Shown here one piece after another: positions 21,001 through 24,000 of a DNA stretch of 64,000 bases (position 1 is the stretch's first letter; every line of letters begins with the position of its first letter). Made by a program: the position numbers. The stretch is from NCBI RefSeq assembly GCF_009931435.1, contig NZ_CP043414.1. One strand, 5' to 3'. The stretch is from Escherichia coli. GTDB lineage: Bacteria; Pseudomonadota; Gammaproteobacteria; Enterobacterales; Enterobacteriaceae.

Positions 21001-24000
21001 TGGGAAAAACGCCAGGTGCTTAAAGAGGACAACGGCAATATTTCGCAAACCGCAAAATCTCCTGCAGAGCGCAAGAGGGCGCAGCGAGAGAGGGAAAGAA
21101 AGCGGGAACAAAATGGCGATTGTCACGGCGCATCACGAAATGTCACGCACATGTCACGACGAGTCACGACAGATAAAGATACAGATAAAGATACAGATCA
21201 AGAAGATCAAAACACTATGGTCCATGGCGTAAAAAACGCTACGAACCAGGCAGGGGATGTTCAGACCGTCAATCCTGGTCAGCCAGCAGGCACGACACCG
21301 GAAGCCGATTCAGCGTATGCGCTGAAACCCGATTCGGGCGCTGTGCAGCAGGTGATGACCCAAAGGCCGGAACAATCACACCAACTGCAGCAGCCTGAAG
21401 CCGATTCCGCCATTCAGCGGGAAGCCGATCGGGTAGTCCCGGAAAACACCGGGCTGTCTGTGGGACGAGTGGATTATCCGGATGTGTTCGAACAGGTCTG
21501 GCGGGAGTACCCGTTGCGTGCCGGAGCAAACCCGAAGAAATCCGCTTTCAGTGCCTGGAAGGCCAGATTACGCGAGGGGGTGCCACCAGAGGCCATGCTG
21601 GATGGCGTGAGGCGTTACGCAAGATACTTGGCGGCTACCGGGAAAACGGGAACGGAATTTGTTCAGCGAGCGACGACGTTTTTTGGACCGGACCGGAATT
21701 TTGAGAACCCCTGGTTGCTCCCGGTAAGCGGCACGAACAACCAGCGTTGTGTGAATCATATTTCTGAACCGGATAACGAAATTCCGCCGGGCTTCAGGGG
21801 GTAAGTGTTAATTTCTGGTCATGAGGTAATTTTCAGGAGGGCTTGTGGCAAAAGTTTTTACACAAGAAGAGCGGGAAAAAATTAAAGGGCAGGTTGTTGA
21901 ACTCGTACGCCAGAGTGGGCGCGAGACGTTACGACAACTGGAAACTAAAACTGGGGCAACAAGATATCTGATGAGCGTTCTGGCCAGAGAGCTGGTTGCC
22001 AGTGGCGATGTATACAACTCTGGTTACGGGTTATTCCCGTCTGAACAGGAGCGTAAGGACTGGCAAAATGCCCGTAAAAAGCTCTCAAGGGCAAAGCTGA
22101 AGAAACCATCTGCGGTTGATCCGGACCTTATCTGGTCATTACCTGACGGAGAAATACGTCGCTACGATAGTTGTCTAAACATAATCTGTCGCGAGTGCCG
22201 GAAGAGCGAAGTTATGCAGCGCATTATGGCATTTTATCAGGGAAATGTTAGGTATTTTAGACGTTACTAGATTAAAGGGCATTAGTTCAGATATGCATTG
22301 ACATTTTCATGGCACAAGGTAGAGCTAGCGTGGTTGTTCGCTTTGTGCCAAGAGTGGTCATTGATAATATTTTGGTGGGTTACATCTGTCAATGTTTCAG
22401 GTGATATGATATACAAATAGCCAGACTTAGACTGGCATGCTGTTTATTTTTATATTATGGGTGTGCCACATGGATTTAAAACTTATTGAGATATGACATG
22501 GATACTTTTCATAATATTTTGCTTGAGCACATAGACAGCCTTTTAAAAGAGAGACTTGATTTATCTGGTGACGCTGATATCGAAAAAGAAATTAATAACC
22601 TAATTCCCAAAATAGTCATTGTCGTTAAAAAATCTCTTATTGGCTCGGCCAATGCAATGCTTAGAGAACATCGTTCTCTTTGTGATGAATTTGTTGAGAG
22701 AAATATTTCAAGATGGGCAGAGGCTTTTGATTTGCTCGAAACACTTATAGTGATATGCACGGAGTCCGGTGAAGAGTTCAATCGTTCTTATAGACCACAA
22801 GCTGCCTCTGAAGAGGATGTGGTTTTTGATTTAGTCGTTCGGCATCACGCAAGAGCTTGCCACATCGCCAACGAAATTTTGTGTCTCTTAAAGAATGGAT
22901 TTGCAGATGCTGCCCAAGCGAGATGGCGAGCACTTCATGAGGTAGCAGCCACAGCTATGTTTATAGCAAAGCATGGAAAAGAGTGTGCTGAGCGCTTTTA
23001 CTACCATGAAGTGGTTGATTCATATACTGGAATGTTGGAACACAAAAAGTACGAGCACCGGTTAGAAGCAAAAGGTCCAACTATTGAAGAAATAGCTGAG
23101 TGCAAAGTTCAATTTGATCTATTAATAAAAAAATACGGCAAAAAATATGCAGATAATTATGGGTGGGCATCTTATATTTTCCCTAACCATAATAAAGTGG
23201 GGTTTGGAGCTATTGAGAAAGATGTTCAGTTAGAACACATGCGCCCTTATTATAAGTGGGCGAGTCAGAATGTACACACCGGTTCCAAGGCAATGAGAAA
23301 TAGGCTTGGTCTCTGTGAAACTGGTGATGATATATTATTGGTCGGGCAAAGTGATTCAGGAATGGCTGATCCAGCCCATGCTACTGCTATTAGTTTGATG
23401 CAGATTACTGTGACACTTTTATTCTTAAAACCAACCATTGATCATGCCGTCATTTCAAAAATAATACAGGATTATTCTGATGAGATTGGAAATGTATTTC
23501 TTAAAATTGATAAGGGTAATTAAAAATTGGAAAAGTGATAGTATATTCTTGTTTTTTTACTGGTAATTAAATGTTTTTAAAGTTACTAGTTCACACCTAT
23601 CGAACGTCCGGTCTTCGCCCAAAGCGGACTAGAAGGTTAGCTTGCGTCGGATTTGGCGTATTTAAAGAATCGCTGGTGGTTACTGGTTGTTGTGTTCCAT
23701 TTCTACAGAACAAAATCACAGAAACTATACCCAATAGTTGTATCTCATCAATGATGAGAGAGCCTCATATTTATCAGGACTGGTGTACGTCCAATACAGG
23801 AGGTTGTCGTGCTGGTTCTCAAATGTGCGCTGGCTATTGCAGCTGTAATGGCAATTTATTGTCTTGCTGTTGTTCTTATGGATCGCCTTTCTGATTGATT
23901 TTATATTGGCCAGGTGACGGGAGTTAAGTAGAATGGCTGCGGGTGCTTGAGGCTATCTGTCTCAGGCATGAACACCAAAGGCAGATAGAGAAAAGCCCCA

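Follow-up and report, generated by a model that had tools for sequence, protein, structure and literature searches.

A DUF5677 gene as a self-contained mobile cassette in a variable slot of a Qin-like prophage of Escherichia coli, with a possible role in conflict with phages

We analysed a stretch of 64,000 nucleotides (nt) from Escherichia coli contig NZ_CP043414.1, hereafter called the window, and focused on a gene of the DUF5677 family that is located between the replication genes and hokD of a Qin-like prophage. We found that this gene is a self-contained accessory cargo cassette in a variable prophage slot. The locus comprises the following features:

20728 to 21804, plus strand: replication initiator or replisome organiser (phrog_3729, 1e-255)
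21845 to 22270, plus strand: left border gene, DUF977 in the RefSeq annotation (phrog_142, 2.4e-44), which PHROGs labels 'Ren-like exclusion protein'
22336 to 23630, plus strand: mobile accessory cassette (moron), consisting of the DUF5677 gene with about 160 nt of 5' flank and about 107 nt of 3' flank
22420 to 22436, plus strand: GC-rich, terminator-like hairpin GCCAG-N7-CTGGC found by scan (-12.6 kcal/mol, z -2.6)
22428 to 22456, plus strand: promoter-like site TAGACT-17-TATATT from a consensus scan (9 of 12 matches), about 40 nt 5' of the ATG
22498 to 23523, plus strand: DUF5677 gene, coding for a soluble protein of 341 amino acids (aa), 38.7 kDa and isoelectric point (pI) 5.8
23606 to 23630, plus strand: 3' junction segment with a small hairpin GTCCG..CGGAC, common to the prophage backbone and to cassette copies elsewhere
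23941 to 24265, plus strand: right border, hok/sok type I toxin-antitoxin (sok 23941-24115, hokD 24110-24265)

A first-pass annotation, made from the DNA alone, had already drawn attention to a 341-aa open reading frame (ORF) at this position, and ORF calling in the window recovered it with an ATG start. The longest possible ORF opens four codons further 5' at a TTG; the ATG (MDTFHN...) is the start in all homologues and in RefSeq. Comparison with the Klebsiella homologue gives a ratio of nonsynonymous to synonymous substitution rates (dN/dS) of 0.115, and comparison with the Providencia homologue gives one of 0.283. Because these values are low and full-length homologues occur in many phyla, sequence comparison indicates that the ORF is a genuine gene under purifying selection.

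The gene lies in an island of low GC content. In the segment 22367-23602 the GC content is 0.371, whereas the window as a whole has 0.491 and the adjoining replication genes on the 5' side have 0.515. The segment thereby ranks at the 3rd percentile among windows of 1,236 bp. The ORF itself has a GC content of 0.385, with 0.31 at third codon positions (GC3). The non-coding DNA is AT-rich on both sides, with GC contents of 0.37 over the 227 nt on the 5' side and 0.40 over the 417 nt on the 3' side, as far as sok. The first-pass annotation had thus described the island well, both in its lower GC content than the flanking prophage (0.371-0.385 against 0.49-0.52) and AT-rich borders and in its position between the replication genes and hokD, where the phrog_3729 gene and DUF977 lie 5' and sok and hokD lie 3'.

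Homology to the backbone of a prophage with other cargo stops at 22362 and restarts at 23606. The slot between DUF977 and hokD is empty in the BL21 prophage and is filled by relBE, directly 5' of hokD, in K-12 Qin and by an alpha/beta hydrolase gene in an O157:H7 prophage. Other E. coli prophages carry a reverse-strand gene of 270 aa, QueH, DUF4406, or DUF7167 together with small ORFs. As is expected of a moron, the slot is empty or otherwise filled in related prophages and the GC content of the cassette deviates from that of the surroundings (0.37 against 0.49-0.52).

The same unit occurs on other replicons. Using blastn, we found that positions 22336-23630 match a Salmonella plasmid (locus L104) with 89.9% nucleotide identity and positions 22361-23631 match a Providencia island (locus L006), just downstream of an integrase, with 88.9% identity. 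The Salmonella plasmid carries ParA, ParM and Rep3 genes, and there the cassette adjoins a MazE/PIN toxin-antitoxin pair. A lambdoid prophage of Klebsiella has the gene in the equivalent slot after the O/P genes, with 77% identity that includes about 120 nt of the 5' flank. Since the gene recurs with its flanks on a plasmid and in an island, the mobile unit measures about 1.3 kb and consists of the gene with both flanks. The limits of this cassette and its presence on three kinds of replicon are new here. The gene is mobile cargo of a variable slot, in agreement with the first-pass annotation, which had seen a lone cargo gene in a position known as a hotspot for morons. At each junction (22336-22362 and 23606-23630), a stretch of about 25 nt is common to backbones with other cargo and to the plasmid and island copies of the cassette. 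These segments may be the crossover points at which cassettes are exchanged.

The hairpin and the promoter-like site of the 5' flank move with the gene, and no clear intrinsic terminator was found 3' of it. The sequence block of the hairpin, whose role is putative, is kept in the Klebsiella and Providencia cassettes, and the predicted promoter-like site sits inside the conserved part of the flank. Both would fit a moron with its own expression signals. On the minus strand, a near-consensus sigma-70-like site (TTGACA-17-TATTAT, 11 of 12 matches) is found at 22392-22364. It is directed away from the DUF5677 gene, towards the end of DUF977, and is not kept in the Klebsiella cassette. Two further candidates in the 5' flank were rejected, namely a regulatory RNA, for which there was no Rfam match, and a conserved small ORF. 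Small ORFs are not kept, as an indel between the E. coli and Klebsiella sequences disrupts their frame.

In two of the copies the cassette is bracketed by direct repeats. In the Providencia island an exact 15-nt repeat, CATTAGCTGACGTTG, lies at L006 7853-7867 and 9162-9176 (reached in 4 of 1,000 shuffles), and on the Salmonella plasmid a repeat matching at 16 of 17 nt, TTGATAATATGTTC[G/C]TG, lies at L104 6864-6880 and 8038-8054 (6 of 1,000 shuffles). In the window, the positions 22361-22377 and 23536-23552 match at only 12 of 17 nt and the flanks have no significant mutual similarity. Flanking repeats were therefore rejected as a mobility signature of the window, being significant in the Providencia and Salmonella copies and absent here. 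The repeats themselves could be recombination scars or operator-like sites.

The protein contains 16 histidines and is acidic. It matches Pfam DUF5677 (PF18928) over residues 112-274 with an E value of 1.5e-33 and PHROG 27456 (phrog_27456) from end to end (2e-209), and the RefSeq name is already 'DUF5677 domain-containing protein'. The statement of the first-pass annotation that the protein has no nameable motif has to be revised accordingly. Existing catalogues already list the family as well as this E. coli gene, without an assigned function, and morons in variable slots of prophages are familiar. We rejected a membrane protein, as there is no transmembrane segment and the maximum Kyte-Doolittle value is 1.44 at a pI of 5.8.

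An AlphaFold2 model built from an alignment of 40 sequences (mean predicted local distance difference test score, pLDDT, of 80; predicted template modelling score, pTM, of 0.73) is all-alpha. It has long helices at residues 28-72, 74-104, 108-132 and 136-168, a less confident lobe at about 215-290 and confident C-terminal helices at 290-339. For conservation we used one alignment of close relatives (A1) and one of 41 distant relatives with 35-45% overall identity (A2), all of which match Pfam DUF5677. W73, L130, G134, R142, W143, R144, H147, E148, G222, W223 and H260 are invariant in A2; R142, W143, R144, H147 and E148 are so in both alignments. At least 90% conserved in A2 are E89, H117, C121, E126, H170, E240 and S285. 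The resulting family signature is (H)ARWRxLHE, and the motif is found in 272 of the 278 family sequences longer than 250 aa. All family signature residues (RWRxLHE, YGW including G222 and W223, and H260) are present in the E. coli protein. This list of invariant residues is also new, and the codons of the main ones are located as follows:

22846 to 22860, plus strand: H117-C121 (RHHARAC), on the helix that precedes the signature helix, spaced by one helical turn and conserved to at least 90%
22921 to 22941, plus strand: signature R142-W143-R144-A-L-H147-E148 (RWRxLHE), candidate active-site helix
23275 to 23277, plus strand: H260, the second invariant histidine (SQNVH motif) from A2, in a region (255-266) with pLDDT below 50

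Searches of the PDB by sequence and by profile gave no match to the protein, and a Foldseek comparison with the PDB, which the first-pass annotation had proposed, gave no hit below an E value of 0.1. Homology to a known structural or metabolic protein, which according to the same annotation would have spoken against anti-phage cargo, was thus not found by sequence, profile or Foldseek. Structure searches returned generic helical bundles, and in AFDB50 the matches are other uncharacterised DUF5677 proteins, including methanogen homologues. PADLOC-DB v2.0.0, the second proposed check, has no family that matches the query at E <= 1, and 10 distant members gave only noise. NCBIfam had no match for the query or for the 10 distant members.

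The family is large and widespread. A profile search against 1.84 billion cluster representatives found 3,535 clusters, defined at 50% identity, at a threshold of E <= 0.001; at E <= 1e-30 the number was 1,588. Full-length homologues with 60-89% identity are found in Salmonella, Providencia, Serratia, Klebsiella, Vibrio, Colwellia, Sulfurovum, Nitrospiraceae and Desulfuromonas, and a scan of species-representative genomes detected relatives in many bacterial phyla, haloarchaea and Euryarchaeota. The search pattern ARWR[TSA]LHE[IVL] had matches in 160 genomic stretches, and 141 of these were confirmed as coding for relatives. Within E. coli, 73 of 5,426 complete genomes (1.3%) have the gene, always on the chromosome, and 72 records cover at least 80% of a DUF977-DUF5677-hokD query. 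Homologues are encoded on 13 genuine plasmid records, many of them haloarchaeal. A single one of 50,697 phage records has a homologue, the SPbeta-like temperate Bacillus phage SPR, whose full-length protein spr_109 (L021 7001-8122, 29% identity) is encoded among early or cargo genes that lack annotation. A conserved N-terminal helical module of about 70 aa is present in about half of the distant members (long forms, P0137-P0265), and P0162 and P0186 are fused to multi-transmembrane N-terminal regions. As neither the module nor the rare transmembrane fusions match Pfam, we rejected domain fusions as informative. The literature that mentions DUF5677 gives no function for it, and the family is absent from the supplementary tables of Rousset et al. 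2022 (PMC9122126).

At 80 bacterial and archaeal loci, we called the ORFs within as much as 10 kb of DNA to either side and clustered them. Every locus contains the DUF5677 cluster, and the commonest neighbour family occurs in only 5 of the 80, which are mutually close relatives. As no neighbour family exceeds this number, a conserved partner gene was rejected, and DUF5677 is a stand-alone gene, for which these loci are new evidence. The adjacent, co-conserved antitoxin gene that would mark a type II toxin was likewise not found in the 80 loci.

The neighbours themselves are heterogeneous. In Providencia the integrase and the DUF5677 gene are followed by a 545-aa protein that matches the PADLOC dCTPase model (1.3e-168) and, further along the island, by a 2,147-aa protein with only a faint NACHT/AAA match. 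On a metagenomic contig (L018), DarT (1.5e-68) and Macro are located two genes from DUF5677, and the Kushneria gene has beside it YefM/YoeB and an FRG protein with a match (1.3e-63) to PDC-S15, a candidate defence system. In Enterobacter it is located at the cargo end of satellite-like elements with int, AlpA and D5 primase. There a protein of 777-779 aa follows DUF5677 (L009 9200-11533, L011 9194-11533, L012 9194-11533; the gene is split in L010). Its sole recognisable feature is a C-terminal SEC-C motif, and its gene, too, may be uncharacterised cargo. The 263 neighbours at a distance of up to two genes include CAP12/Pycsar-TIR (three), Mrr (two), ResIII/DEAD (four) and integrases (three), as well as KAP NTPase, HipA, AAA_21/23, SMC_N and UvrD. 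According to a published analysis of Bacillota, recombinase-associated defence contigs are enriched in DUF5677 (adjusted P 2e-92, n = 25). This genomic company, with dCTP-deaminase, DarTG and PDC-S15 as defence genes close to family members, suggests, without proving it, a role in conflict with phages or mobile elements.

The prophage around the cassette is collinear, with 99.4-99.7% identity over 11607-34868, with the Qin-like prophage beside rspAB in avian pathogenic E. coli (APEC) O78, from which the hokD annotation was transferred. The sok RNA at 23941-24115 was identified with Rfam RF01794 (110 bits). APEC O78 has an IS2 between the replication gene and DUF977 (L001 10378-11606, at about 21892 in the window), and the window has none. 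The small RNA DicF (18259-18310, minus strand) and a cspA-type thermoregulator 5' of cspB (27593-27985, plus strand) are present, as expected of a Qin-like prophage. The match to the APEC O78 prophage ends at 34868 within the ORF of the terminase large subunit (33879-34871, phrog_15). On the 3' side of this ORF come first an integrase ORF (35033-36271, phrog_1, 4e-71) and then an anti-repressor (36546-37124). In this region (33879-37124), it appears that a second integrative element was inserted into the terminase gene, and the Qin-like prophage would therefore be defective. Three more low-GC islands were seen in the window, at 26701-29000, which spans the csp genes, 29701-33100 and 34851-36700 (minimum 0.33-0.38 in windows of 1.2 kb).

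We tentatively favour the reading that this is a mobile accessory cassette whose stand-alone enzyme helps its carrier in conflict with phages or other mobile elements, and we give it somewhat less than an even chance. According to this proposal, the gene would be driven in the lysogen by its own promoter, and its product, a soluble all-alpha protein of about 39 kDa, would work without a dedicated partner. The long helix 136-168 would supply R142, R144, H147 and E148 to the active site, the C-terminal lobe would add H260 and W223, and the neighbouring helix would add H117/C121. Two arginines, two histidines and one glutamate would best fit a phosphodiester or phosphoryl chemistry on RNA or nucleotides, and the resulting growth arrest of the infected cell would be of the abortive-infection style. 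The cassette would be kept because its product protects the carrier cell or element from incoming phages or other mobile elements. We infer from the locus that the gene is expressed in the lysogen and serves in defence; we likewise infer the enzymatic activity, the substrate, the trigger and an abortive-infection-like mechanism directed at phosphodiesters. Enzyme-like conservation, with invariant residues at 35-45% overall identity, speaks for the proposal, as does a patchy distribution with a homologue in just one of the phage records, which is not that of a core phage gene. The mobility of the cassette, its variable slot, the lack of a partner gene and the defence genes in its company point the same way.

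Several observations weigh against it. One DUF5677 protein from Bacillota was expressed constitutively in Enterococcus faecalis and tested against six phages; five ORFs lowered plaquing in that study, and this one did not. Because of this result and the missing PADLOC match, it is the genomic context that carries the defence idea; the first-pass annotation is thus supported in part, for the lone cargo gene in a variable slot and not for an anti-phage function, to which neither a PADLOC model nor protection by the one homologue tested points. The neighbour survey of 80 loci and 263 neighbours had no matched background control, and in the Photobacterium, L016 and Desulfuromonas loci no defence or mobile-element genes were found near DUF5677. 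Moreover, identities of at least 60% across phyla are unusually high and atypical of fast-evolving immune genes. Promoter and terminator of the gene are predictions at the level of a consensus. PADLOC, NCBIfam and the PDB offer no match, nor does Pfam beyond DUF5677 itself, and since structure searches return only generic bundles, it is residue chemistry that carries the catalytic assignment. Finally, the E. coli and Salmonella subgroup has Q140 (codon 22915-22917) at a position that is H in at least 90% of the family, which turns HARWRxLHE into QARWRALHE.

The alternative that survives best, although we consider it improbable, is that of an ordinary accessory enzyme for stress, detoxification or metal-dependent metabolism, riding on mobile DNA without any role in conflict. 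Strong conservation across phyla favours such an enzyme, and so do the housekeeping contexts in Photobacterium, L016 and Desulfuromonas and the negative outcome of the single phage test of a homologue. However, no metabolic operon or conserved neighbour was found in the 80 loci and no metabolic family matched in NCBIfam or Pfam, the gene is patchy (1.3% of E. coli), and it is found repeatedly in cargo regions beside verified defence genes.

Less still speaks for a role in element maintenance, which we regard as rather unlikely. The protein would act in a toxin-like manner and penalise the loss of the prophage, plasmid or island, as relBE and hok/sok do. The relBE genes in the same slot of K-12 Qin, the MazE/PIN pair beside the Salmonella plasmid copy and YefM/YoeB beside the Kushneria copy are compatible with addiction, and the DUF5677 gene is intact although the terminase gene of its prophage is disrupted. 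Against addiction, the 80 loci contain no conserved small partner gene (antitoxin), and the 5' flank has neither a conserved small ORF, given the indel between E. coli and Klebsiella, nor an Rfam RNA. Moreover, a homologue was cloned and constitutively expressed alone in E. faecalis. As it was tolerated there, it is not an unrestrained toxin.

As to mechanism, another reading would be an abortive-infection RNase of the HEPN type, in which Rx4H (R142..H147) would form the composite, metal-independent site of a dimeric RNase, as in AbiV, RnlA and Tha. HEPN RNases such as AbiV, AbiU2, RnlA/LsoA and Tha are also all-alpha bundles with R-x4-H that are carried as single-gene cargo by prophages and plasmids. 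In DUF5677, R142-x4-H147 is invariant and has the Rx4-6H spacing, and the AlphaFold2 model is a helical bundle, which is not diagnostic. However, the residue that follows the motif arginine is the invariant W143, where a polar N, D or H is expected (PMC3710099). The motif is at positions 7-12 of the continuous helix 136-168 (pLDDT of about 90) and not at the end of helix 3. The Ex3[KR] motif, which is common though not universal in HEPN (PMC3710099), is not conserved upstream (helix 2) in the A1 and A2 consensus. No HEPN family of Pfam matched any of the 41 members at E <= 0.1, and hhalign against RnlA gave a probability of 0.07%. The DUF5677 protein also differs by a C-terminal lobe of 170 aa with additional invariant residues (YGW, H260). 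As it departs from HEPN in four of the six criteria of PMC3710099, which had not been reported before, we do not file DUF5677 as HEPN, and we see little chance that it is such an RNase. An analogous, metal-independent phosphodiesterase site of arginine, histidine and glutamate is nevertheless plausible from the residues. The main alternative to it is a metal site composed of H117, C121, H147, E148, H170 and H260.

An offensive role in counter-defence or host takeover, with expression together with the early/nin region, as lambda ren acts against Rex exclusion, would suit the post-replication (ren/nin) position directly after a Ren-like gene. It would also suit the homologue that the temperate Bacillus phage SPR carries in its early cargo region and the habit of mobile elements to cluster anti-defence genes as well. 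We nevertheless consider this role hardly probable. The protein is large and highly conserved, unlike most anti-defence proteins, and its gene is very rare in phage records but common on chromosomes and on plasmids of archaea and bacteria, at sites where phage genes are lacking. The gene also moves independently of phage backbones, with its own conserved 5' flank of hairpin and promoter-like site.

The conflict reading, if true, would extend the immune repertoire by a family of single genes with over 3,500 sequence clusters across bacteria and archaea, and it would also bring in an enzyme fold without a solved relative. In its boldest form, it would make DUF5677 a new and widespread single-protein immune or exclusion effector of bacteria and archaea, with a catalytic helical domain (RWRxLHE/H260) unrelated to HEPN and to solved enzymes, carried in a portable 1.3-kb cassette that moves among prophages, plasmids, satellites and islands; this we consider doubtful. 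Without a conflict phenotype, DUF5677 would be one more conserved, uncharacterised protein carried by mobile DNA. As the cassette measures only 1.3 kb together with both flanks, a test for a phenotype is cheap, and DUF5677 is a reasonable candidate for a defence screen. Moreover, the slot between the Ren-like gene and hok/sok in prophages of the Qin/Rac type is a usable hotspot for finding more cargo.

When compared with known systems, the E. coli protein is a full member of Pfam DUF5677/PHROG 27456, in which all family-invariant residues are present; together with the Salmonella protein it differs from most of the family by Q140, and it lacks the N-terminal module of about 70 aa that about half of the distant members have. 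The gene resembles the single-gene, DUF-type anti-phage systems of prophage and satellite hotspots in being a lone DUF gene in a variable prophage slot, with homologues in the cargo of satellite-like elements with int, AlpA and primase. Rst_DUF4238 has reportedly been described as such a system of P2/P4 hotspots by Rousset et al. 2022. In contrast to these systems, DUF5677 is absent from PADLOC v2, and its slot is the post-replication slot of lambdoid prophages and not a P2/P4 hotspot. With relBE of K-12 Qin it shares exactly the same position 5' of hokD. Unlike relBE and hok/sok it has no antitoxin partner and no kinship in sequence or fold, as a helical protein of 341 aa is set against a small mRNA interferase. 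The cassette also resembles the morons of the lambda ren/nin region, with which it has in common the post-replication position beside a Ren-like gene, the deviant GC content and a putative promoter of its own. Unlike these morons, it is also found outside phages, on a plasmid, in islands and in archaea.

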